Part shown: positions 3,389 through 60,957 of the stretch, piece after piece | Layout of the letters: the number at the start of each line of letters is the position of its first letter | Numbering within the stretch: the first letter of the stretch is position 1 | Source of the DNA: Bdellovibrionota bacterium | GTDB taxonomy: Bacteria > Bdellovibrionota > FAC87 > UBA2466 | Length of the DNA: 64,000 bases | Assembly: GCA_041749855.1 (NCBI GenBank) | Contig: JBGTAN010000026.1 | Coordinates: 24,472-88,471 of the forward strand | Direction: 5' to 3' | The notes under the pieces: generated by a model | The model's input: only the letters and a program-made list of their open reading frames with translations | What the model was told of the DNA's origin: nothing | The model's database searches: none | Position numbers and translations under genes: made by a program

Positions 3389-3751
3389 TTAGCGAATTCG
3401 GAGATATGCCTTCAATGCGAGTCTAACTTTCTCGCGTTCGTTCTCGAAAAGTGATCCGAGTTTCTTGAGGGGTTTAAAGAACTCGTCTGGCAGCGTGTAG
3501 ATCTCATGACAAAGAATCTTGCAATTCTTGGTGACGAATCCACCGTATCCGTTCGGCAGTTCGACTTCAGTCATCGTTACCCGCTGTCCCCGATCTTGGA
3601 GAGGGCTACACGTGAACTTGTTTCTCATGTCGGGCGGCGCAATGAGCACATACGCCCGGTGCGTCTTTGAACTATCGGTCGGCTGAGGTGGAGCGGTTTT
3701 CTTGATCGCTTCCTGCTGAGGAACCCAGTAAATTTCCCAGATGGCTGCCAT
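3389..3751 (-). CDS. PemK/MazF-fold type II toxin (putative)
   Basis: At 120 aa, the pattern WEIYWV...HRAYVLIAPP...CSPLQ...ILCHEIYTLP...LGSLFENEREKVRLALKAYL resembles MazF/PemK-family layout. It starts 5 nt downstream of a small RHH-like ORF. The local sequence is visibly AT-richer than its flanks. Confidence 0.55.
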   Translation of the reverse strand: MAAIWEIYWVPQQEAIKKTAPPQPTDSSKTHRAYVLIAPPDMRNKFTCSPLQDRGQRVTMTEVELPNGYGGFVTKNCKILCHEIYTLPDEFFKPLKKLGSLFENEREKVRLALKAYLRIR

Positions 3752-3756
3752 CGCTA

Positions 3757-3984
3757 TTACTTGACCTGCGCTTTGGCCATCGAAGTGGGCAATGGCGCGG
3801 CTTCTTCCTTGTGGAGCTTTGAGTCTTCAACTAATTGATGCTCGAGAAGTTTCTCTAGGCCTGCCTCAACGACTTCCGATTGGGTTTTGAAATATCCCCG
3901 TGAAACGAACATTTCGATAATCTCGGCAGAGCGATTTTTGATCTCGGGTCGGAATACCTTGTTTTTGATTTCTAAGTTCCGCAT
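3757..3984 (-). CDS. ribbon-helix-helix-like antitoxin (putative)
   Basis: This is a 75-aa ORF starting at ATG 3984, with GGAGAA about 6 nt upstream. It is small and charged and sits immediately upstream of the toxin-like ORF. The RHH assignment rests on size and position only. Confidence 0.45.
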   Translation of the reverse strand: MRNLEIKNKVFRPEIKNRSAEIIEMFVSRGYFKTQSEVVEAGLEKLLEHQLVEDSKLHKEEAAPLPTSMAKAQVK

Positions 3985-4114
3985 TTCAGTTCTCCAAATG
4001 TAGTGTACACGAAACATGTACACGAATCAACACCTGGTTGAGCGGCAAACTGGCAAGCTGATGGTTATTTTATGTTAAATATTTATTATAATTGGATATT
4101 CAGCAAGAGCAGGT

Positions 4115-4126: not shown

Positions 4127-4281
4127 GGTGATCCATGCTCCGCTAACCCCTCATCCGGAGAGCTTTCATACCAAGGAACTATTTGTGAGTTTCGCCAGGT
4201 CGGATGGGAACACCAGAGATTGTTCCGCGTGATAGCTCATCGAGAGCCACTTTTACGTCTTTCAAAAGGGCTTCCCCGCCA

Positions 4282-4297
4282 CTCTCCGCGCGGAGAG
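4282..4297. repeat. 16-nt palindrome CTCTCCGCGCGGAGAG (solo copy)
   Basis: Read directly. The 19 nt CTCTCCGCGCGGAGAGTTC are identical to 51842-51860. Confidence 0.85.
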
Positions 4298-4364
4298 TTC
4301 CAAGCAGCCAACCCTGCTAGTTTTCGCACGGCGCCTCAGGTGCTAGAAGTCTGAAAGCGAAAAC

Positions 4365-4667
4365 TTATCCTCCCGCACAAGGCGGAGACTTTCGATTGGT
4401 CTGGTACTGGACCCATTCTTCGGGAGTGTAGGTCTGAAGCGCAAGCGCGTGTACGCCGTTTTTCATTTCTTCTTCTAGTAAGCCGTAAACCATCCGGTGG
4501 CGCTCGACGAGCGTTTTACCCGCAAAGCCCTTGGTGACGAGTAGCAGCTTGAAATGGGTTTCGCGGCCCGGAGGCCCTTTGTGGTTGTCGCTTTCGTTCA
4601 CCACTTCCACGTGCTGGGGGGTGAAGACCGACTTCACTTTTGCTTCTATTCGTTGCTTTACAGTCAC
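4365..4667 (-). CDS. bolA: BolA family protein
   Basis: The translation aligns by eye with E. coli BolA along its whole length (KQRIEAKV..., HFKLLLVTKGFAGKTLVERHRMVY, VHALALQTYTPEEW, SPPCAGG). A GTG start at 4667 gives 100 aa. The ATG at 4796 would add an unmatched 43-aa extension. Confidence 0.8.
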   Translation of the reverse strand: MTVKQRIEAKVKSVFTPQHVEVVNESDNHKGPPGRETHFKLLLVTKGFAGKTLVERHRMVYGLLEEEMKNGVHALALQTYTPEEWVQYQTNRKSPPCAGG

Positions 4668-4691
4668 GCGCCCTACTATAGAGAGTTCCGT

Positions 4692-5618
4692 ATGGAATGG
4701 AAGGACGTCGATTGGAAGATTTTTCACAGCCTGCGAGCAGGCTTTCTCACCCGACCCAAGGCCGATTATTGGGACTCTGACCGAGTGCTCGAGCACTACG
4801 ATCTAGCTATCGCACCTCGCATTGTCGATAAATGGCGCTCGGTTTGGGCGGATGTTCAGGCCTCCGGAAAGTGGCCCGCGCCAAGTGTGCTTTTGGATTG
4901 GGGCTGCGGCACGGGTGCGGCAACCCTTGAGTACATCCGAGTCTGGGGGAAGCCAGCAAAGGTTCTGCTCTGGGACCGTTCCCCGCGCGCGGTAGCTTTC
5001 GCAAAGAAAAAAGTGGAAGCGGTGGGGGTGCCTTGCGCCGCGTGGGACGAGAGTCGATTCGATGAACCTTTTGCTTTGATCGTGAGTCACGTCGTCAACG
5101 AAATGGACCCGGCGTCCAAGCAAAATCTCTTTTCGTTCTTACAGCAATCGCAGGCCTTTGCACGGGTGGAACCCGGAACGCCAGAAGCAGCCAAAGAGAT
5201 CATTGAAACACGGGAGAGTGTGACGACGCATACTTGGATCGCACCGTGCCCCCATCAGGCCGCGTGTCCCCTGAAAGCGAGTCAGGAAGATTGGTGCCAT
5301 TTTTTTGCAGAACCGCGACAGGAATATTTCACCAATGGCGATTGGGCGCGGTACGCCCGCGAAATGAAGATCGATTTGCGTTCGCTTCCTGTCAGCTACT
5401 TGATCGGCGTGAAGGGGCAAGACCAGGCGACGCATTCGAGAGGGCGGCTTATAGGGCGACCGAAAGTTCACAAGCGCGATGCGGAAGGTCTAATCTGTCG
5501 TGAATCCGGATGTGAGTGGGAGGCGATTGAACCCGAACAGGGCGAGCGTCTGAAGTCTCTGAAGGACAATCAGCTAGTACGAAGAGGAAAAACGCGGAGC
5601 CCGTGGGGGCCCCGCTGA
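4692..5618 (+). CDS. Rsm22-like SAM-dependent methyltransferase
   Basis: It has SAM motif I LLDWGCGTGAAT and a C-terminal Cys cluster CPHQAACPL...DWCHF of the kind seen in the Rsm22 family. The start is taken at ATG 4692 (MEWKDVDW). Confidence 0.6.
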   Translation: MEWKDVDWKIFHSLRAGFLTRPKADYWDSDRVLEHYDLAIAPRIVDKWRSVWADVQASGKWPAPSVLLDWGCGTGAATLEYIRVWGKPAKVLLWDRSPRAVAFAKKKVEAVGVPCAAWDESRFDEPFALIVSHVVNEMDPASKQNLFSFLQQSQAFARVEPGTPEAAKEIIETRESVTTHTWIAPCPHQAACPLKASQEDWCHFFAEPRQEYFTNGDWARYAREMKIDLRSLPVSYLIGVKGQDQATHSRGRLIGRPKVHKRDAEGLICRESGCEWEAIEPEQGERLKSLKDNQLVRRGKTRSPWGPR

Positions 5619-27577: not shown

Positions 27578-28834
27578 ATGAACTTTGTCCGCGCCATAAC
27601 TCTATGCCTACTGGTCATGACCTCGGGTCATGCTGCGTTCGGCGAGTGCGGTCCAAACGGTTGCCGTACCGGGGGCGGGGCTTCTAGTTGGACGAATTTC
27701 ACGCCGAGGTTGTCTTCGCCGACCCCGGCCGGCGGAGGCGGTATGCAGGGGCAGCCGGCTGTCGATTCAGCCGCGTTGGAAAAGACCGCAGCCGACACTG
27801 CTTTAGAGGCCAAAACAAAGGAGCGCAAGGAAGCTGAGGAGGAAAAGCCTCCCAACAAGGAAAAAATAGACCGACTGAAGAAGGAAGAAGAGATTGCAAA
27901 TCAAAGGGTCCAAAATGCCAATGCCGCACTTAAACAAGCGCAGGATCGTCAGAGGGCTTTGACCGGCGACGATAGTGCTCCAAGCGACAATGCCTCCCAT
28001 GGCGGCGATGAACCTAAAAAAGGCGGCGGCGATTCTCCACCGCCACCACCACCTCCTCCTCCTCCTCCTCCTCCTCCTCCTCCTCCTCCGGCAGAAAAGA
28101 AGGGCGACGAACAGCCGCCACCACAAACGCCGCCAGCTAAGAATGAACCTCAGGCAAAGACCGAGATTCCTGAGCCAAAAGCTGATCCGCGGCTTGAAGC
28201 CATTGAGAAAGAACTTGTTGATTTGAAAACAGCGACCCTGGCCGAATCGCAACAGTCGCCTGCTACCGACGCAGCCGCTGATCAGCTTGCCGCCATCGCG
28301 AAAAATAACGAAGCCCAAGTTGCGCAAGTGTTGAAAGACGTTCAAGCCGTGAGTGCCGTGCAGAGTGATCTCAATCGCTCAAGCGGGAATCAGGTCGCTT
28401 CGACTGGATCTTCAAGTGGCACTACCCGCGGAGGGATTGCAGCCGGGATGGGCGCTTCAGGTGGGACTACAACTGCTTCGAGCCAAGCAGGGCAAGTGGC
28501 CGGAACTTCAGTGCGAGACACGCTCGGTGTCCCCGGGTCCAGCGCACGCGCTTTCAAAGCGCCGGCTCAAACGCAAGGCGCTGGTGGAAGTAGCGCTATC
28601 GAATTGTCGGATTTATCGTCTTCGGAAAACGCTCTGGCCCCTAGGGCAGCGAGTGTGGGCGGAGTTCCCACTTATGGGCGAGGGATTGCCAGCGTAAGTA
28701 CACGGTCGGTCAGTCGAGTTTCGGATCCGAATGCACCGGTTTTGCCTGGACCGCTTTCAGTGGTCATGAAGGGAAACAAAGTCGTTCTCGGTTCCACCCG
28801 CACTGAGGCCCAAGCCCGGGCACTAAAGAACTAG
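27578..28834 (+). CDS. secreted coiled-coil / poly-proline / Ser-Gly-rich protein
   Basis: The start is taken at MNFVRAITLCLLVMTSGHAAFG (ATG 27578). A charged helical segment is followed by a long proline run and then a low-complexity S/G/A/T-rich tail. Confidence 0.6.
   Translation: MNFVRAITLCLLVMTSGHAAFGECGPNGCRTGGGASSWTNFTPRLSSPTPAGGGGMQGQPAVDSAALEKTAADTALEAKTKERKEAEEEKPPNKEKIDRLKKEEEIANQRVQNANAALKQAQDRQRALTGDDSAPSDNASHGGDEPKKGGGDSPPPPPPPPPPPPPPPPPPAEKKGDEQPPPQTPPAKNEPQAKTEIPEPKADPRLEAIEKELVDLKTATLAESQQSPATDAAADQLAAIAKNNEAQVAQVLKDVQAVSAVQSDLNRSSGNQVASTGSSSGTTRGGIAAGMGASGGTTTASSQAGQVAGTSVRDTLGVPGSSARAFKAPAQTQGAGGSSAIELSDLSSSENALAPRAASVGGVPTYGRGIASVSTRSVSRVSDPNAPVLPGPLSVVMKGNKVVLGSTRTEAQARALKN
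28052..28087 (+). repeat. (CCT)12 trinucleotide microsatellite inside a CDS
   Basis: Counted directly: twelve consecutive CCT codons within an 18-codon proline run (28037-28090). Confidence 0.95.
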
Positions 28835-35282: not shown

Positions 35283-35296
35283 CTCTCGCGCGAGAG
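35283..35296. repeat. 14-nt palindrome CTCTCGCGCGAGAG (left flank of HNH gene 1)
   Basis: Read directly. The 17 nt CTCTCGCGCGAGAGGTT recur at 36224-36240. Confidence 0.85.
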
Positions 35297-35402
35297 GTTG
35301 GTCCCGGCTTTTAGCTTTTTATCGTCGATAAAATCGTATTTTCAGCTTGCCAAACCGCACGGTACGAAATACATACATGTGTATTCATTTGAGACGTGCA
35401 AA

Positions 35403-36284
35403 ATGCTAAAGGAAATGAGTGATAATGGGCTGATGGCAGGGATTGTAGAAGAGGTCGGAGTGGAGAAACGCTCTACCGCGCAGGTGCTGGAGTATTTGGT
35501 TGAGATAGATAGCCGTCGGCTTTGGCTCGTTGAGGGCTACTCCAGTCTGTATGACTTCTGCGTTCGCTTTTTGAACTACTCTGAAGGAGAAGCAGGTAGG
35601 CGCATCCAAGCCGCTCGTTGCTCAGCGCAGTTTAAGGAAGTGGCCCCACTCCTGGAGCGGAACGAACTATCGCTTTCAGGTGTGAGCCTGATTGCCCCCT
35701 ACCTCACTCACCAAAACAGCTCGACGCTATTGCCTGAAGTTTGCAAGAAGTCGACGCGTGAGATTGAAACGATCTTGTGTCAGCACTTTCCTGAGGCGAG
35801 GCAAAAGGAAGAATTCTTCAAAGCTTCGCTGGATGAAGAGCTCAAAAGGCTCTTGGAGCAAGCGCACCGGGAAGTGTCCGAGAAGGACGAAACCGTCTTC
35901 TTGAAACGAGTTCTGAAGCAGTTTCTAGCGGCAAAACGCCCTCGCAATGTAAAACCTATTAAACACACGCGCTATGTTCCGAAGGCGCTCAGGCAGCAGG
36001 TTAAAGCGGCTTCACGTCACCGCTGCTCCTTCCGCTCCGCCTCGGGGGTTCAGTGTAACCAAACCGCTCATTTAGAGATAGATCACATTCGGCCGTGGGC
36101 AAAAGGTGGCAGCAGCCAAGACATTGAGAATCTCAGGGTGTTGTGCCGGGCCCACAATCAGCTTGCTGCCAAACAGGCTTTTCCCGATCGGCAGGGCCTA
36201 CCGGAAAGGAAAAAGAATCAACCTCTCGCGCGAGAGGTTCGGGCAAACGGAGGAATCCATATCCCAAAGCAAAGACTCGGGTAG
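35403..36284 (+). CDS. HNH endonuclease with DUF222-like N-terminal region
   Basis: C-terminal motif HLEIDHIRPWAKGGSSQDIENLRVLCRAHNQ. The N-terminal helical region (VLEYLVEIDSRRLWLVEGYSSLYDFCVRFLNYSEGEAGRRIQAARC) is like DUF222-HNH proteins. ATG 35403 was chosen over the TTG at 35298. Confidence 0.75.
   Translation: MLKEMSDNGLMAGIVEEVGVEKRSTAQVLEYLVEIDSRRLWLVEGYSSLYDFCVRFLNYSEGEAGRRIQAARCSAQFKEVAPLLERNELSLSGVSLIAPYLTHQNSSTLLPEVCKKSTREIETILCQHFPEARQKEEFFKASLDEELKRLLEQAHREVSEKDETVFLKRVLKQFLAAKRPRNVKPIKHTRYVPKALRQQVKAASRHRCSFRSASGVQCNQTAHLEIDHIRPWAKGGSSQDIENLRVLCRAHNQLAAKQAFPDRQGLPERKKNQPLAREVRANGGIHIPKQRLG
36222..36237. repeat. 16-nt palindrome CCTCTCGCGCGAGAGG (right flank, inside the 3-prime end of HNH gene 1)
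   Basis: Read directly. Confidence 0.85.
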
Positions 36285-48966: not shown

Positions 48967-49821
48967 ATGAAGAAACTACTTCTCACCATGGGCCTCATGG
49001 GTGGCCTGCTTGCCCTACCTGCGAATGCTTTTGTTCCGCCTGTTTCTGAGTTGCTGCAAGATGTTTTTGCGGGGCGCAAAGCGGGAGAGGGGTTGGAGCT
49101 CGTTTTCCGACACTTGGTGCAAGTCAGAGAAGGGACTTTCGTAGAAGTGGTTGAGACCTTTACCGGTAATCGGCAAGGCGGGGTTATTCAGTGGCAGATT
49201 CCCGGGCAAGCCCCCGTCTATTCTGAGTGGAATACCCGCGAGTATAATTTCAAAGGCGGTAAATCCATTCCCTCTCGGACCAGCGCCTTCATCGATTACT
49301 TTTTGGATCAGGGTAGCAACGAGTATTTAGATAGGTTGCTACGAGAGCGTTTCATTCGGCGTGATCAGCTCATTCAGTTTAAACCCGGTTACAAACCAGA
49401 GGGGGATCCCAAAACTTGGGAGACCAAAGACAGCTATCTTCATCACGACGATATCTATCTATCGAAAGTGGGCAATGAGTTTACGGTTGCGGTGGTCGGC
49501 ATGAAAGAGGGCGAGCAAAAACGGGCTTTCTATGTCAATCGTCAGGGGCGTGGCATTGCACGTATCGAATGGGGCGTGGGAACTGAAAAAGCGCTTTGGG
49601 ATTTTTCGGCGTTCCAATCGGCAGGGTCCGCAGGACGCTTGCCACGGGTTTTCTCCCTCACGATTAATGGACTCGAGCGCGTTAAGTCCACGGTGGCAAG
49701 CGCGCAAGTGTTGAAGCGCGATCAGCTGGCAACGGCGCGCGCAGCAGCCAAACAGCCTTCTTCCACTGCGCCGAGTGACGCCCTAGAAGAAGCCGTTCGC
49801 CTGATTGTTCGTTACCGATGA
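48967..49821 (+). CDS. secreted hypothetical protein
   Basis: Signal peptide MKKLLLTMGLMGGLLALPANA. It is tightly packed between galU and priA. No family was recognised. Confidence 0.6.
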   Translation: MKKLLLTMGLMGGLLALPANAFVPPVSELLQDVFAGRKAGEGLELVFRHLVQVREGTFVEVVETFTGNRQGGVIQWQIPGQAPVYSEWNTREYNFKGGKSIPSRTSAFIDYFLDQGSNEYLDRLLRERFIRRDQLIQFKPGYKPEGDPKTWETKDSYLHHDDIYLSKVGNEFTVAVVGMKEGEQKRAFYVNRQGRGIARIEWGVGTEKALWDFSAFQSAGSAGRLPRVFSLTINGLERVKSTVASAQVLKRDQLATARAAAKQPSSTAPSDALEEAVRLIVRYR

Positions 49822-51839
49822 ACGAGATGCCGACGCCTTCAGGGCTGGTCGAACTGGCCATTCCTCTTCGAGTTGAGGGAAGTTTTCACTACCTTTTTGA
49901 TCCGACGGCGGACCTACAAGTGGGCAGTGTCGTTGAAGTCAGTTTCAACCGTCGACCCACCCACGCTTTCGTTCTGGGTTTTCCCGAGTCGAGCGACATA
50001 GCGGAACATAAGCTCAAGCCCATTCAAACTGTGCTGGCCAAAGATCCCCTCTTTGATCCGGCGATGCTGAAGTTTCTCCGCTGGGTTGCCGAGTACTACT
50101 GCCATCCGTTGGGTGAAGTGCTCTCAGCTGCGATTCCGAAACAGCTTTGCATCGCGCCGTTGGAGAAAAAAGAAAAAGCGATTAACGCTAAGCCGTTGAA
50201 GTTCGTTGTCTCCGCTACGACCGATATTCCCGATCTCACGGCGGAACAATCGGCCGTGCTTGCTGAAATTGAAGCGGAGAACGAGAAGCCGGTCCTACTC
50301 CATGGGGTGACGGGGAGTGGAAAGACCGAAGTATACATCCGCGTTTTGGAGAGATTCGCTGCGCAAGGCAAAAGCGGGCTGATACTCGTTCCGGAGATCG
50401 CACTCACCCCTCAATTGCTTGGACGATTTGATTCCCGCTTTCCTGGAAAGGTGGCTGTGCTTCACAGCGATCTCACTCCCAAGGAGCGGATGGGACAATG
50501 GGAGCGTATCCGTCGAGGGCTGGCGACGGTCGTGATTGGTGCGCGTTCTGCGGTTTTTGCGCCCCTACAGAATTTGGGATTGATCGTTGTCGATGAAGAA
50601 CATGAAACTTCGTTCAAACAAGAAGACTCGCTTCGTTACCACGCGCGCGATGTGGCTGTGGTCCGAGGGCGTTTTAGTGGGGCAAAAGTCCTTCTAGGAT
50701 CTGCGACGCCTTCCCTGGAAAGCATTTCAAATGTCCGAAGTGGGCGCTACCGTCTTTGCCGCTTAAGCAAGCGAGTGATGGAACGCCCCATGCCGAAGGT
50801 CACGCTCGTGGACTTGCGTGACAAGCAAGAGTGGCATGCGCCAGAAACACCCTGGTTGAGCCGTCGCTTGGTGGGGCGAATTCGAGAAACCTTGGATAAG
50901 AAGCAGCAAGCGATGCTGTACTTGAATCGACTGGGATATGCACATTTCCTGTTCTGTCAGGACTGCGGTCACACCTGGAAATGCCGGCAGTGCGATGTCA
51001 GTCTTACCTACTACCGGCATCCGCCATCGCTTCAGTGCCACTATTGCGGCTCGGATCATAGTGTTCCCTCCAGTTGCGAGGCCTGCGCCGGCGCGAATTT
51101 GACGACGATGGGAGTGGGCACTGAGCAGGTGGAGAAAACGCTTCAGGGGATATTGCCCACTGCTCGTATTGCTCGGATGGACCGCAGCGTGATTAAGACA
51201 CGTAAGGATTTGGAAAGCATTCTTACGACAGTTGCCAATCGCGAAGTCGACGTCATCATCGGCACGCAGATGTTGGCCAAGGGACACGACTTTCCCGGTA
51301 TTTCGCTCGTCGGCATTCTGATGGCAGATGCTACTTTGAATATGCCTGACTTCCGTGCGGCGGAGCGGACTTTTCAAATTATTACCCAGGTTTCTGGTCG
51401 GGCAGGGCGCGGCGAAATTGCGGGTGAAGTCATTCTACAAAGTCTCAACCCCGACGCGCCGATTCTCCATCAGGCCATGGCGGGAGAGTATGAAAATTTT
51501 TACACAGAGGAATTGAAAGCGCGTGCCGCACTGGGGTTTCCTCCTTCAAAGCGCATGGCGATGTTGCGCTTTCAGCACAAGAATCAAGCGCGCGTGCAGG
51601 AAGTGGCAGATCGCGTCGTGCAGTTTCTGGTGTCTCGTGCGCTTCCGGGAGTGCAGATTTTAGGCCCCGCTGAAGCACCGCTTGCTAGAATCAAGAACTT
51701 CTATCGCTGGCATTGTTTGGCCAAATGCGATTCCGTTCGGCAAATGCAGACTCTAATTCATATGGCGATCGAGTATTCCGATCACCTAAAATCCGGCGTT
51801 CAAATGGCGGTCGACGTCGATCCCGTCAGCACGCTTTAG
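49818..51839 (+). CDS. priA: primosomal protein N-prime (replication restart helicase)
   Basis: Walker A GVTGSGKTE, DEEHE, and the Cys-rich zinc-binding insert CQDCGH..CRQCD...CHYCG...CEAC. Confidence 0.9.
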   Translation: MNEMPTPSGLVELAIPLRVEGSFHYLFDPTADLQVGSVVEVSFNRRPTHAFVLGFPESSDIAEHKLKPIQTVLAKDPLFDPAMLKFLRWVAEYYCHPLGEVLSAAIPKQLCIAPLEKKEKAINAKPLKFVVSATTDIPDLTAEQSAVLAEIEAENEKPVLLHGVTGSGKTEVYIRVLERFAAQGKSGLILVPEIALTPQLLGRFDSRFPGKVAVLHSDLTPKERMGQWERIRRGLATVVIGARSAVFAPLQNLGLIVVDEEHETSFKQEDSLRYHARDVAVVRGRFSGAKVLLGSATPSLESISNVRSGRYRLCRLSKRVMERPMPKVTLVDLRDKQEWHAPETPWLSRRLVGRIRETLDKKQQAMLYLNRLGYAHFLFCQDCGHTWKCRQCDVSLTYYRHPPSLQCHYCGSDHSVPSSCEACAGANLTTMGVGTEQVEKTLQGILPTARIARMDRSVIKTRKDLESILTTVANREVDVIIGTQMLAKGHDFPGISLVGILMADATLNMPDFRAAERTFQIITQVSGRAGRGEIAGEVILQSLNPDAPILHQAMAGEYENFYTEELKARAALGFPPSKRMAMLRFQHKNQARVQEVADRVVQFLVSRALPGVQILGPAEAPLARIKNFYRWHCLAKCDSVRQMQTLIHMAIEYSDHLKSGVQMAVDVDPVSTL

Positions 51840-51841
51840 GG

Positions 51842-51857
51842 CTCTCCGCGCGGAGAG
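51842..51857. repeat. 16-nt palindrome CTCTCCGCGCGGAGAG (left flank of HNH gene 2)
   Basis: Read directly. It starts 3 nt after the priA stop codon and is identical to 4282-4297. Confidence 0.85.
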
Positions 51858-51928
51858 TTCATCTCGAAAATGCAGAACCGACTCAATTCTTGTTGCCAAA
51901 CCTAACAAGGATACATAGGTATGTATCT

Positions 51929-52795
51929 ATGAAAACCGAAGCACTTCATCAGAGGGCACTGACCGTCGTCAAAAGCTATCGCGCTGCTGAAGGGGCGCTT
52001 GTAAGCATCCTTCAAGAAATAGATCGCGATCATAGGTATCGAGAGTTGGGCTACCCAAGTCTATTTGTTTATGCGACGGGCGGACTGGGAATGATCGACG
52101 CAGAAGCATACCGTTTTATTACCGTTGCTAGAAAGTCAGTGGAGATTCCACTTCTGAAGGATGCTATCGACCAAGGGAGTCTGAATGTCTCGAAGGCATC
52201 GCGAATTGCTTCCGTAATTGTCCCTGCAAATCAGGAGCAATGGCTTGAGGCCGCGACGACCCTTCCGTATCGAGAGTTGGAAAAGGCTGTTGCCGCTGCT
52301 CATCCAGATGTGGAAGTGCGTGAACGCGTGCGCCCTATTTCTGGGGATCGTTCGGAGCTGCGGTGTGGTCTAAGTAGCACACTGGAAGCAAAGATTCAGC
52401 GGGCTCGAGATGTGCTCTCTCAAAAACGTCGCGGCAACTGTTCCTTGGAAGATGTTATCGATGTAGCCATTTCCCTTTTTCTCGAAAAGCAGGATCCAGT
52501 TCGGAAGGCCACCCGAGCTACTGAGTCGAAGTTTCCAAGTCGCCCCATTAACTTAGCAAGTCGCAACTCGGACGGGAGCAGGCGGGCGTTACCTGCAGCT
52601 GTAGCACATCAGGTGGTTTTGAGAGATCGGGGCCGTTGTACTTATGTAGGTTTGACCGGGGTGAGATGTTGCTCTGAAAGATGGATCGAGAAACACCACA
52701 TTCAGCAGGTGGCTAAGGGAGGCAATCATTCCGACCGCAACCTCGCCACCCTATGCTTCGCTCATCATCAGCTTATTCATGAAAAGACTGGATGA
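51929..52795 (+). CDS. HNH endonuclease with DUF222-like N-terminal region
   Basis: C-terminal motif IEKHHIQQVAKGGNHSDRNLATLCFAHHQ. The N-terminal region SILQEIDRDHRYRELGYPSLFVYATGGLGMIDAEAYRFITVARK is arranged as in the 35403 paralog. The start is ATG 51929. Confidence 0.75.
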   Translation: MKTEALHQRALTVVKSYRAAEGALVSILQEIDRDHRYRELGYPSLFVYATGGLGMIDAEAYRFITVARKSVEIPLLKDAIDQGSLNVSKASRIASVIVPANQEQWLEAATTLPYRELEKAVAAAHPDVEVRERVRPISGDRSELRCGLSSTLEAKIQRARDVLSQKRRGNCSLEDVIDVAISLFLEKQDPVRKATRATESKFPSRPINLASRNSDGSRRALPAAVAHQVVLRDRGRCTYVGLTGVRCCSERWIEKHHIQQVAKGGNHSDRNLATLCFAHHQLIHEKTG

Positions 52796-52811
52796 CTCTC
52801 CCCGCGGAGCG
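52796..52811. repeat. degenerate palindrome copy CTCTCCCCGCGGAGCG (right flank of HNH gene 2)
   Basis: Read directly. It begins at the nucleotide after the HNH stop codon and matches 13 of 16 positions of the left copy. Confidence 0.5.
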
Positions 52812-52817
52812 TCGACG

Positions 52818-53468
52818 TTAGGTCACGAAACCGATGAGGGCGCGGAAGAGATAGCCGACCGGTGCGCCGATCATTTGCAGTCCGCCCGTGAAAAGCAAGA
52901 GAAGCAGAATGAATCCAGCATAAGGCGTGATCTTGTACGCTTGATTCGCCCACTTCAGGGGCAAGACGGCTTGAATCACCATGAAGCCATCGAGTGGCGG
53001 CAGGGGCAAAAGGTTGAAAAGCGCTAGGAACAGGTTCACTTGGATTGTAATGACCGTCAGAATCTGCGCGGCTTCATTCACCGTGTAGCCCTCAAACTCT
53101 GGCAACGGCATTCGGACGATAGCACCCAGGACAAGCGCTGCGACGCCGGCGATGAGTAAGTTAGCAGCCGGTCCTGCTGCCGCAACCGCAGCCATCCCCC
53201 AGCGCTCATTCTTAAAATAGCGAGCATCGATAGGGACGGGCTTGGCCCATCCGAAGAAGGGTAAGCCGTAGAAAATACAGACACTCGGGATAATGAGAGT
53301 GCCCATCGTGTCCGCGTGAGCGAGCGGGTGCAAACTTAAGCGGCCTAGTGACCCAGGGGTGGGATCTCCCAAACGCGTGGCTACCCAAGCGTGCGCGTAT
53401 TCATGGAGGCAGAGTGAGAATAGAAAAACGGGCACCAGAACTAGGACACCCATGAGGCCATGCGTCAT
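52818..53468 (-). CDS. site-2 protease family (M50) membrane metalloprotease
   Basis: HEYAHAW (HExxH) within the first TM region. It is a polytopic membrane protein of 216 aa. Confidence 0.8.
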   Translation of the reverse strand: MTHGLMGVLVLVPVFLFSLCLHEYAHAWVATRLGDPTPGSLGRLSLHPLAHADTMGTLIIPSVCIFYGLPFFGWAKPVPIDARYFKNERWGMAAVAAAGPAANLLIAGVAALVLGAIVRMPLPEFEGYTVNEAAQILTVITIQVNLFLALFNLLPLPPLDGFMVIQAVLPLKWANQAYKITPYAGFILLLLLFTGGLQMIGAPVGYLFRALIGFVT

Positions 53469-57017: not shown

Positions 57018-57764
57018 TTAGTGCACCGACCGGGGGATGTCGTAACGCGTAGGCGTTCCGAGTACCGTCTGGTCGCTGTAATTGAAGATCGGTGCCTGTG
57101 TGGGGGTCGTAGGCCCCGTTGGGCACTGAACCACTCCACCGCAACCGCCCCAAGGAGGCGCTGTTGGGGGATAGCTCGGGTAATTCACCACAGGTCCCTG
57201 GTCCCAAGGATTGGGAAGCAAAGGATTGTAATTTGTCAGCGTGGTTGGGTACGTCGGATACGTTGGGAACTGAGGATTCTGCGAGCAGCTTGGCTGATAG
57301 CAGGTCGGGTACTGGAAGCAGTTCGACTGTCCGTAGTTCTGGTATCCGTAAAAAATCGGAAGCTCGATATTGATGTTGATGTCGTAGTCGTAGCCGCTCA
57401 AATAGCTGCCCGAATCCCAACCGCCATAGCAGCTGCCGCTCGAAGAGAAGCTGCCGCAAGATCCGCCCCAGTTATTTCCATAGAGGCTGCTGGAGTCGTA
57501 AAAACTACCGAGGTTGTACAAGTCGGTACCGAAGCCATAGAGGTTCGAACCCCCTGCGCCGTACATTCCGCCCCAAGCAGCATCATAGCCGTAGCTGCCG
57601 TAGCCACCGTAGCTGCTCGCTCCGTAACCGCCGTAGCTGCTACCGCCGTAACCACCGTAGCTGGAGTAGCCAAATTCGAATTCGGCATTCGCTTTAGAAG
57701 CGCCAAAGTGAGCAGAGATCAGGGCAAACATCCCGACCACTAGAAAGAGTTTTAAACGCGTCAT
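57018..57764 (-). CDS. secreted Gly/Tyr/Ser-rich low-complexity protein with Cys- and Pro-rich C-terminal half
   Basis: ATG 57764 has GGAGA upstream. Signal peptide MTRLKLFLVVGMFALISAHFGASKANA is followed by SSYGGYG-type repeats and then a Q/P/Y/C-rich region. Confidence 0.65.
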   Translation of the reverse strand: MTRLKLFLVVGMFALISAHFGASKANAEFEFGYSSYGGYGGSSYGGYGASSYGGYGSYGYDAAWGGMYGAGGSNLYGFGTDLYNLGSFYDSSSLYGNNWGGSCGSFSSSGSCYGGWDSGSYLSGYDYDININIELPIFYGYQNYGQSNCFQYPTCYQPSCSQNPQFPTYPTYPTTLTNYNPLLPNPWDQGPVVNYPSYPPTAPPWGGCGGVVQCPTGPTTPTQAPIFNYSDQTVLGTPTRYDIPRSVH

Positions 57765-59795: not shown

Positions 59796-60335
59796 TCAGG
59801 GTCCCACCGGAACAGGCAGGCAAGCTTCGATGGCCTTGGTAATTTGACTCACGGTGGCGCCCTCCTTTTTAAAGACCACTTCACCCATCGTATCGACGAC
59901 TACCGCGTTAGGGATGCCGGTTCCTGCGCCAAAAAAATCTCCTCCGCAGTGCCTGGGAGAACCCGCGACGACAAACTGAGCTTGTGCTTGGGCGAGACGG
60001 TGCTTAGTCGACCATTCGGTGAGAAAGGTCTGGTTCGGGGCCGCACCGTAATTCCAGCCTTCGCAGGAGAGACTGAAAAAGACGACATTCTTCTCTTTGA
60101 ATTTCGCCATGTCGCTACCGATGGTGGCGAACTCGGAGTTACAAGGGCCGCACCAACCCGCGTTGAATAGCAAGACGCGCACCGCGAAGTCATGGGTTTT
60201 GTCCTCCAAGCAGACTTGCTGCCCGGCTACGTCCGTCCAGCAATAGTTCTTTGGTTTATCCCCTACCTCGGTGAGGGCAATGAGAGAGTGATTCGAGAAG
60301 AGGAAGATGAGCATTACGATGAGTCGAAGCGTCAT
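59796..60335 (-). CDS. secreted thioredoxin-fold protein (TlpA/ResA-like), paralog B
   Basis: WCGPC active site and a signal peptide. More than half of its positions are identical by eye to the upstream paralog. Confidence 0.75.
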   Translation of the reverse strand: MTLRLIVMLIFLFSNHSLIALTEVGDKPKNYCWTDVAGQQVCLEDKTHDFAVRVLLFNAGWCGPCNSEFATIGSDMAKFKEKNVVFFSLSCEGWNYGAAPNQTFLTEWSTKHRLAQAQAQFVVAGSPRHCGGDFFGAGTGIPNAVVVDTMGEVVFKKEGATVSQITKAIEACLPVPVGP

Positions 60336-60350
60336 AGGCAGTCCCCAACG

Positions 60351-60381
60351 AAAAAAGAAGCAACCTCACTGAGGTTGCTTC
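60351..60381 (-). terminator. rho-independent terminator between the two thioredoxin-like paralogs
   Basis: A perfect 11-bp stem GAAGCAACCTC-ACT-GAGGTTGCTTC, followed on the minus strand by T6. It ends 16 nt before the start codon of paralog B. Confidence 0.65.
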
Positions 60382-60420
60382 TCTTATTGTACTTCACCGT
60401 TGCTGGCGTTGGCTTAAGAC

Positions 60421-60957
60421 TTAAGGCATTGAGGGCACGGGCGTCGGAAGCACCCGTTCTACTTCTCGGACAATGGCGTTCACACCCGGGTTGATCTCTT
60501 TGTAAGAAACCACTCCCGATGAATCGATCACGACGACATTGGGAATATAGACGCTCGAGAAGAAGTCGTTTCCGGCATTGCGAGGGGAGCTCGCGACCAC
60601 GAAACTGGCTTGTGCGCTGTTCAATCGATGGCGCGTCGACCATTCTTTGAGAAAGCCGGTAGAAGCCCCGGCGCCTCGGCTCCAACCGTCGCTCGAAAGA
60701 CTGATGAAGACGACGGGCTTGCCTTTGAACTTGTTGGTTGCTGATGCAATCGTCGAGAACTCAGTATTGCAGGGGCCACACCAACCTGCGTTGTAGAGAA
60801 GGACACGCACCGAATCTCTGTGTGCAGCATCTTCGAGACATACTTGCGCTTCGTTGGTGTCTTTCCAACAGTAGTTCTTGGGTTTGTCCCCCACCTCGGT
60901 GAGGCCAAAAGCAGAGGAAGCAAAGACGAAGGCGAAAGTGAGGATCGATTTTCTCAT
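60421..60957 (-). CDS. secreted thioredoxin-fold protein (TlpA/ResA-like), paralog A
   Basis: WCGPC active site and a signal peptide. The N-terminal motif LTEVGDKPKNYCW.D....QVCLED is shared with paralog B. Confidence 0.75.
   Translation of the reverse strand: MRKSILTFAFVFASSAFGLTEVGDKPKNYCWKDTNEAQVCLEDAAHRDSVRVLLYNAGWCGPCNTEFSTIASATNKFKGKPVVFISLSSDGWSRGAGASTGFLKEWSTRHRLNSAQASFVVASSPRNAGNDFFSSVYIPNVVVIDSSGVVSYKEINPGVNAIVREVERVLPTPVPSMP

Follow-up and report, generated by a model that had tools for sequence, protein, structure and literature searches.

An HNH endonuclease gene bounded by short palindromes as a candidate one-gene mobile cassette in a Bdellovibrionota bacterium

Why does a gene encoding an HNH endonuclease, bracketed by two copies of one short palindrome, lie wedged between priA and an M50 peptidase gene? 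The question is raised by a stretch of 64,000 nucleotides (nt) from a Bdellovibrionota bacterium (assembly GCA_041749855.1, contig JBGTAN010000026.1, positions 24,472-88,471 of the forward strand), hereafter the window, which also carries a paralog of this gene in a similar setting. We call the two units cassette 1 (locus 1, protein W1) and cassette 2 (locus 2, paralog 2, protein W2). Our answer, which we hold with slightly more confidence than doubt, is that each cassette is a selfish one-gene unit of about 1 kb, mobile or formerly mobile, whose bounding palindromes would be the recognition sites of its own nuclease.

Locus 1 is organized as follows:
49818-51839, plus strand: priA (Pfam PriA), flanking the cassette 1 insertion on the left
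51842-51857, unstranded: left palindrome of cassette 1, CTCTCCGCGCGGAGAG, perfect, 16 nt, starting 2 nt past the priA stop
51858-51928, plus strand: leader of cassette 1, 71 nt, holding TTGCCAAACC (51893-51902) and, directly against the start codon, the palindrome ATACATAGGTATGTAT (51911-51926)
51929-52795, plus strand: HNH gene of cassette 1, 288 amino acids, ATG start
52796-52811, unstranded: right palindrome of cassette 1, CTCTCCCCGCGGAGCG, a degenerate copy with 2 mismatches
52818-53468, minus strand: M50 peptidase gene (Pfam Peptidase_M50), the convergent right flank, stop codon at 52818-52820

The priA stop codon TAG (51837-51839) is followed by GG and then by the left palindrome. The right copy begins at the base after the HNH stop codon, and 6 nt separate its end from the M50 stop. 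When we read the sequence, the palindrome, the 71-nt leader, the open reading frame (ORF), the degenerate copy and the M50 stop were all found where an earlier sequence-only reading of this DNA had placed them. That reading had also proposed that the gene and its leader form a discrete, palindrome-delimited block in a tight housekeeping junction, and comparison with other genomes agrees. Two of the 80 priA loci that we retrieved keep the priA-M50 neighbourhood, and these two (L042 and L043, PriA identity 56-68%) are the most window-like of all. In L043 the stop codons of priA and the M50 gene are separated by 2 nt, in L042 the two genes lie 11 nt from each other, and neither junction has a palindrome or an HNH gene. 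No HNH homolog lies at priA in any of the 80 loci. Removing positions 51842-52811 from the window leaves a priA-M50 spacer of 8 nt. Since priA and the M50 gene abut in these relatives, the whole 970-nt block is an insertion. Gene-free relatives with both palindromes, which the sequence-only reading had named as grounds to abandon its view, did not appear, as L042 and L043 carry none. Its expectation of exactly one palindrome at empty sites was not borne out by the two sites found, which are from distant relatives and not decisive on this point. The M50 gene itself has changed orientation: it is co-directional with priA in the closest relative (L042, 7013-7660) and convergent in the window and in L043, so that it was inverted at the priA junction at some point in the lineage.

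Cassette 2 is built from the same kinds of parts:
35283-35299, unstranded: left palindrome of cassette 2, CTCTCGCGCGAGAG followed by GTT, these 17 nt recurring as a direct repeat at the right copy
35300-35402, plus strand: leader of cassette 2, holding TTATCGTCGATAA (35319-35331), TTGCCAAACC (35347-35356) and ATACATACATGTGTAT (35369-35384)
35403-36284, plus strand: HNH gene of cassette 2, 293 amino acids, with a two-domain architecture like that of cassette 1
36220-36239, unstranded: right palindrome of cassette 2, AACCTCTCGCGCGAGAGGTT, perfect, 20 nt, within the 3' tail of the ORF

The earlier claim that this paralog shares the architecture of cassette 1 holds, with two corrections. The right palindrome is part of the 3' tail of the ORF, with 48 nt still to go to the stop, and does not follow the gene. 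The start codon is the ATG at 35403, one base from the position given before (35404). The two proteins are 26% identical over their whole length. The word CTCTCGCGCGAGAG occurs twice in the window, at 35283-35296 and 36223-36236 (0.47 copies expected by chance), and the direct repeat shared by the two ends is CTCTCGCGCGAGAGGTT, 17 nt long.

The right end of cassette 2 also marks where homology stops. The conserved part of W2 ends around residue 262, and its tail reads through the right palindrome (..QPLAREV..) into flanking DNA. We compared W2 with its closest relatives at the protein level: P0146, P0147 and P0148 (90-93% identical) and P0049 (74%) all keep the ..PLA(R/K)E that is the translated right palindrome. 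From the next codon on, the W2 tail is unrelated to theirs; the tails of P0146, P0148 and P0049 are alike for a few residues, and that of P0147 is different again. Translating the other two frames by hand showed that a frameshift in the window copy does not yield the relatives' tails. Such a pattern is what one would predict if the outer edge of the right palindrome is where homology stops, the ORF reading into whatever adjoins. For W1, a single-protein search returned no close relatives in GTDB genomes.

Are these palindromes special, or simply common words? The window has three copies of the cassette 1 type and two of the cassette 2 type, and four of the five flank HNH genes. The remaining one is:
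4281-4298, unstranded: solo cassette 1 palindrome, ACTCTCCGCGCGGAGAGT, within a spacer of 340 nt that separates bolA from a PemK/MazF-like toxin-antitoxin pair

The palindrome and the TTC that follows it (4282-4300) make 19 nt identical to 51842-51860. No HNH remnant was detected at this site by tblastn, the spacer has no similarity to the cassette leaders past the palindrome, and no second palindrome was seen beyond the toxin-antitoxin pair. This solo copy could mark a target or be the scar of an excision. Around it, bolA lies at 4365-4796 on the minus strand, the toxin-like gene at 3389-3751 (21.4 bits, just under the cut-off) and a neighbouring ORF of 88 amino acids at 3757-4023. Hence a second selfish module, the toxin-antitoxin pair, adjoins the only palindrome copy that lies away from the HNH genes.

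By count alone, three window matches to the 16-mer family are not improbable, as 24 of 100 shuffles show. This is the one observation that suits an explanation by coincidence, in which GC-rich intergenic words, or ordinary repetitive extragenic palindromic (REP) elements, would be common and lie beside HNH genes by chance. We find it hardly credible at all, and it is effectively refuted by where the palindromes lie. Of the nine perfect palindromes in the window whose arms measure 7 nt or more, four are members of this family, three of which flank HNH genes. In one homologous locus (L014), a search of all GTDB representative genomes found three copies of the bracketing palindrome in its own genome (CAYNEF01), all at the HNH locus, with the type absent from the rest of that genome and the remaining matches being singletons in unrelated taxa. 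Dispersal over intergenic sites, which the sequence-only reading had said would reduce the palindrome to a plain REP element, is thus not what we observe. Further, the association recurs at specific positions in independent genomes with differing palindromes. The significance of the palindrome comes from this position and its recurrence in homologous loci, not from its count. Base composition is uninformative, both cassettes being mildly GC-poor (8th-9th percentile of 970-nt windows). The 19-mer CTCTCCGCGCGGAGAGTTC had 18 matches in metagenomes, all from unrelated organisms of higher GC content and none beside an HNH gene, which says nothing of the window organism.

The recurrence was examined in 38 homologous loci from species-representative genomes, found with the paralog 2 family. 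Homologs of both window proteins are many and metagenomic, and carry no annotation beyond 'HNH endonuclease' from Oligoflexia or Bdellovibrionaceae. We scored zero-loop palindromes, with the centre of the left copy 102-385 nt before the start codon and that of the right copy at -55 to +8 nt of the stop. A matched pair was present in 9 of 31 complete loci, against 18 of 840 cross-genome control pairs. Likewise, when the longest word shared upstream and downstream was scored, 6 of 33 loci had one of 13 nt or more, compared with 9 of 992 mismatched pairs (p = 3e-6). The palindrome differs from element to element, but within an element the upstream copy agrees with the downstream one, so that the two co-vary. 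All have a core in common, either TC(C)GCGC(G)GA or TCCCGGGA. The bracketing palindromes include:
L014: AAATATCGCGCGATATTT
L019: GAGATCTCCCGGGAGATCTC
L009 and L012: CTCTCGCGCGAGAG, as in W2
L013: ATCTCGCGCGAGAT
L018 and L021: AACATCGCGCGCGATGTT-like

The cassettes are multi-copy in Pseudobdellovibrionaceae-like MAGs. There are 13 loci in one such metagenome-assembled genome (MAG), JACPWY01, whose copies are 80-90% identical in nucleotides over some 1.2-1.4 kb, and 6 in the Pseudobdellovibrionaceae MAG CAYNEF01. About 14 of the 38 loci lie within about 650 nt of a contig end, as repeated DNA does in assemblies.

Palindromes also bound segments other than the gene. In L019 the order is palindrome, module X, palindrome, gene, palindrome, inverted X, palindrome, where X is noncoding and about 290 nt long. 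Inverted modules of this kind are present in L005 and L025, and in L021 X lies between the left palindrome and the leader. As modules are bounded in either orientation, the palindrome marks the junctions between modules. The order in L014 is A-P-gene-P-Y-A-P, with P the palindrome and A a direct duplication of about 160 nt. This noncoding repeat (3716-3880 and 5027-5190) flanks the whole cassette together with an AT-rich segment and has no Rfam match; the third palindrome copy of the locus is at 5203-5220.

The leaders are equally characteristic. Within the window, TTGCCAAACC is found at 51893-51902 and 35347-35356 and nowhere else, and the same holds for ATACATAnnTATGTAT at 51911-51926 and 35369-35384, a count reached in 0 of 100 shuffles. 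Homologous loci keep the order of leader motifs: TTATCGTCGATAA, then a TTGCC/TTGAC word, then ATACAT..ATGTAT just before the ribosome-binding site. The leader words are thus specific to the cassettes, as the sequence-only reading had supposed, being unique to the two cassettes in the window and conserved in those of other genomes. It is possible that TTGCCAAACC is the -35 region of cassette 1. By eye, a promoter may be read as TTGCCA, 17 nt and TACATA; strict sigma-70 promoter calls gave none in either leader. The leader palindromes would serve as operators that keep the nuclease repressed.

Such operator-like palindromes (TTATCGTCGATAA, and ATACATAnnTATGTAT over the likely -10 region) raise the question of whether the bounding palindromes too are regulatory. 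The gene would in this case be stationary and domesticated, and the palindromes would be operators for its own ParB-like domain (see below) or for a host factor, acting in autoregulation, looping or insulation of transcription; they would have no role in movement, and the multiple copies would reflect ordinary duplication. Co-variation of the two palindromes is also expected under this explanation if one protein reads both copies, and the right palindrome of locus 2 forms a terminator-like hairpin on the minus strand. However, that hairpin is the sole intrinsic terminator called at the window palindromes and lies where no gene ends; there was no plus-strand call, and no coding-strand T-run follows the palindromes. 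A stationary gene also leaves unexplained why the insertion fell in a housekeeping junction of 2-11 nt, why homology among copies of 90% identity or more breaks off abruptly at the palindrome, why copies are many, lying at unrelated loci and at contig ends, and why noncoding modules have the same bounding palindromes in both orientations. We consider it quite improbable, and a purely regulatory role of the palindromes explains less than a mobile cassette does.

What kind of protein would act on these sites? W1 has a helical N-terminal domain (residues 1-130 approximately), a variable linker and a C-terminal HNH domain with C237, C247, H256-H257, N271, C276 and H279/H280. The HNH family PF01844 (cut-off 21.4 bits) matches W2 at 30.7 bits and W1 just under threshold at 19.4 bits; it matches 57 of 57 members of the W2 family, where it is the sole domain at curated threshold, and its C/H/N ligands are invariant in the alignments. 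The core of the fold matches the HNH domains of colicin, pyocin and McrA. The sequence-only reading had labelled the protein DUF222-like. This label was not supported: PF02720 (gathering score 24.4 bits) has no match to W1 or W2 at E <= 0.01, and its matches to 21 of 57 W2 relatives are all below threshold (best E = 6e-4). It also reaches 20.1 bits, again below threshold, in 1 of 10 more distant representatives, and the distant matches P0045 and P0047 carry PF02720. The suggested analogy with the DUF222-HNH repeats of the REP13E12 type consequently stands as a lead to distant homology below threshold, but not as a threshold assignment of the window proteins. The architecture is widespread: a profile search limited to E <= 1e-30 gave 3,559 representative clusters, and relaxing the limit to E <= 1e-10 gave 13,244.

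The N-terminal domain is likely, but unproven, to be a helix-turn-helix (HTH) domain of the ParB/Noc kind. The full-length model had a predicted local distance difference test score (pLDDT) of 90, and the N-terminal 132 residues modelled alone scored 95.7. In a Foldseek search of the PDB, the best 12 matches of this domain were all DNA-binding domains of ParB, Spo0J or Noc, with template-modelling scores up to 0.56, probabilities of 0.35-0.94 (11 of 12 at least 0.72) and E-values of 0.5-2. Alignment by hhalign to a Spo0J sequence was in register with the HTH and the following helices (E = 9e-4, probability 23%). HMMER found no ParB match in the PDB, and no Pfam ParB model matched. ParB and Noc dimers read palindromes of 14-16 bp, namely parS and the Noc site ATTTCCCGGGAAAT. 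The latter is built around CCCGGG, and some cassette palindromes have a core like it.

Searches for better-known machinery were negative. Pfam, NCBIfam and PHROGs scans gave no transposase of the DDE, serine, tyrosine or HUH type. There was no PADLOC defence-system match and no named NCBIfam model, PHROGs matches were limited to HNH-domain families, and no phage or plasmid homologs were found. No Rfam family was detected in the window or in three of the loci. RNA-guided IscB of the IS200/IS605 OMEGA kind, which is marked by RuvC and PLMP domains and an omega RNA, was considered and rejected: its model NF040563 scored 18.7 and 26.6 bits against a cut-off of 175, on the HNH motif only, and the negative Rfam result just given applies here too.

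These observations are best accommodated by a mobile or formerly mobile cassette with four parts: a bounding palindrome, a leader with promoter- or operator-like motifs, the gene, and a second palindrome at the 3' end of the gene or just inside it. The N-terminal domain would bind the palindrome as a dimer and the HNH domain would nick or cut there. As all copies of one palindrome would yield mutually compatible ends, a cassette cut at both bounding sites could be excised and joined into another cut copy by host ligation or repair, and joining would regenerate the full palindrome at both junctions in either orientation. Break-induced copying would lead to the same end product. Cutting and rejoining at palindromes would account for a full palindrome at every junction, for modules in both orientations and for solo copies as targets or scars. 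That a ParB-like-HTH/HNH nuclease of this sort, as a rare cutter on bounding palindromes that moves cassettes and modules, defines a new transposase-free class of mobile elements is a more doubtful proposition, which we put forward tentatively.

The two copies might instead be a long target-site duplication. In that case the cassette would have inserted into pre-existing host palindromes, terminator-like or REP-like, and duplicated them, either through repair synthesis or through breaks staggered by 14-20 nt, and the HNH protein would only make the break, as in homing-type invasion. Two palindrome copies are formally both inverted and direct repeats. Several observations fit a duplication. The 17-nt direct repeat at locus 2 includes the non-palindromic GTT, there is a solo copy in the window, L014 is flanked by its direct duplication of about 160 nt and L007 by a non-palindromic one of 18 nt, and among four symmetry scores, that for extension of the direct repeat to the right of the palindromes was the largest (31 of 72). 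We nevertheless regard a target duplication as unlikely. L018 and L021, from one genome and 78% identical in nucleotides, carry closely similar palindromes, as would be expected if these pass down with the element or are its specific targets, and W1 shares a left end consisting of the palindrome and TTCATC with L001, a relative 44% identical. Moreover, there is no solo palindrome at the two empty priA-M50 sites, and the palindromes are so rare in genomes that there would be very few targets.

The mobile cassette driven by its own palindrome-specific nuclease has its own difficulties, and several observations weigh against it. Only about a third of the loci have a clean palindrome pair. The 13-copy subfamily of JACPWY01 has none and shows other conserved flanks, the W1-family loci L003, L165 and L167 lack the palindrome, and L001 has the left copy alone. 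Cassette 1 may be inactive, given the degenerate state of its right palindrome. The empty sites are distant and carry no solo palindrome, and the palindromic target, like the binding and cutting of the palindrome by the protein and the mode of movement, is something we infer from sequence. The assignment of the N-terminal domain as ParB-like draws on the Foldseek E-values and the hhalign probability given above and should be taken as provisional. No strand-transfer activity is known for an HNH nuclease by itself, and movement would have to rely on host functions. Counts of symmetry in the 8-nt flanks favour neither target duplication, nor element ends, nor a central cut. Finally, we considered whether module X of L019 is a dispersed MITE (a miniature transposable element with inverted repeats). 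Its core occurs only at L019 in its genome; because it is not dispersed, we see these modules as local mosaics and not as a MITE family.

Other conserved or repeated sequences were noticed at several loci. In the JACPWY01 subfamily (L015-L032), a conserved G-rich block of about 150 nt lies some 340-420 nt upstream of the HNH start (..GGTGGAGGTGGGGTGGGTG..TCTTGCTGTCGCG..CCACTCCAT..AGTCCGATCCGGT.., upstream of a TTGACGGAATCC word) and could be a structured RNA. Before the genes of one cassette subfamily there are tandem units of about 31 nt, GAGAGATAYGCGAACCTGCCTGAAYATCTTTY (L007, 100-190; L030, 3470-3560), holding imperfect ATCTYTCGAGAGAT-type palindromes that are found after the gene too. An Elusimicrobia HNH homolog (L036) has a perfect 42-nt palindrome 84 nt upstream (3876-3917), and this palindrome, GGTTATCCACAAACATACGGTACCGTATGTTTGTGGATAACC, consists of two inverted DnaA-box-like words. 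L164, whose protein is 43% identical to W1, has the upstream palindrome TTTGTCGCGCGACAAA (1404-1419) and a perfect 26-nt palindrome with the same core, CGGCTTTGGTCGCGCGACCAAAGCCG (2087-2112); the latter is in-frame ORF sequence, located where the hypervariable linker joining the two domains of the protein is encoded. Upstream of the W1-family HNH gene of L003 (4440-4720) there is a tRNA-like sequence on the minus strand, with its 3' part incompletely duplicated about 200 nt away, and the pair looks like the ends of an element integrated at a tRNA gene. In the metagenome contigs L129, L133, L134 and L139, TTATCCACAAA directly precedes CTCTCCGCGCGGAGAGTTC, and the flanks differ in each.

The window has further repeats. 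A run of CCT/CCA triplets at 28031-28092 would be a proline- or glycine-rich coding repeat, depending on the strand. A 24-nt tandem repeat, TAGCCGTAGCTGCCGTAGCCACCG, is at 57586-57663. Two segments at 60007-60908, 628 nt apart, share stretches with 84-90% identity and are likely tandem paralogous genes.

If the proposed activity is correct, it would be the first function for a superfamily whose protein clusters exceed 13,000 and include its DUF222-HNH/REP13E12 relatives. A DNA site that travels with the gene leads to a direct hypothesis, in which the site would be bound and cleaved and the cassette would be what moves. Should the mechanism be true, it would mean DNA movement without a transposase and would provide a source of rare-cutting nucleases with palindromic sites of 14-20 bp. 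If it is false, the cassettes still flag recurrent assembly breaks and read-through ORF tails in Bdellovibrionota-like MAGs.

How do the cassettes compare with known systems? Full-text literature searches returned no description of a palindrome-bounded HNH architecture, and the nearest systems each share part of it. REP13E12 is a multi-copy chromosomal unit of about 1-1.4 kb whose lone product also combines a helical N-terminal domain with a C-terminal HNH domain. It is present in several copies per genome, as is the cassette family, which reaches 13 per MAG although the window has only two divergent ones. Yet REP13E12 is mycobacterial, from another phylum, and PF02720 is below threshold in the cassettes; palindromic termini and leader motifs are not mentioned in the papers that can be searched, and the role of REP13E12 in phage attachment has no counterpart at the cassettes. 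Free-standing HNH homing genes, such as those of phages, resemble the cassettes in being lone nuclease genes between genes that abut in relatives, as at the priA junction, and in encoding a nuclease presumed to make the break that spreads its own gene. The cassettes, in contrast, are not set in an intron, intein or phage, no homologs turned up in phages or plasmids, and their copies occupy many unrelated loci per genome. In addition, classical homing splits one asymmetric site, whereas the cassettes have a full palindrome on both sides.

Other systems share the relation between protein and palindrome. In the RAYT/REP (REPIN) system, where RAYT stands for REP-associated tyrosine transposase, a nuclease gene is likewise flanked by palindromes on which it is thought to act, and these palindromes also delimit small noncoding modules. 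The cassettes differ in encoding an HNH protein, with only HNH domains found, instead of a Y1 HUH transposase like the TnpA of IS200/IS605. Their palindromes are perfect, have zero loop and number 2-4 copies rather than hundreds, and the gene itself is multi-copy. ParB, Noc and VirB share the predicted fold of the N-terminal domain and sites of the same kind, the cassette palindromes being 14-20 bp long and some having cores like the Noc site (TCCCGGGA). This similarity is statistically weak, and the cassette protein is a nuclease fusion that lacks the N-terminal CTPase and the C-terminal dimerisation domain of ParB. Type II restriction enzymes of the HNH (beta-beta-alpha-Me) kind recognise a short palindrome and leave compatible ends, as the cassette nuclease would, but no methyltransferase was seen beside either cassette gene, and the cassette sites, at 14-20 bp, are very rare. 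An artificial mobile element made with the EcoRI gene, attributed to Eddy and Gold, is said to show that a nuclease gene flanked by its own sites can be a mobile unit. We regard the cassettes as a variant of selfish HNH endonuclease genes, with a minority chance that they form a new, transposase-free class.

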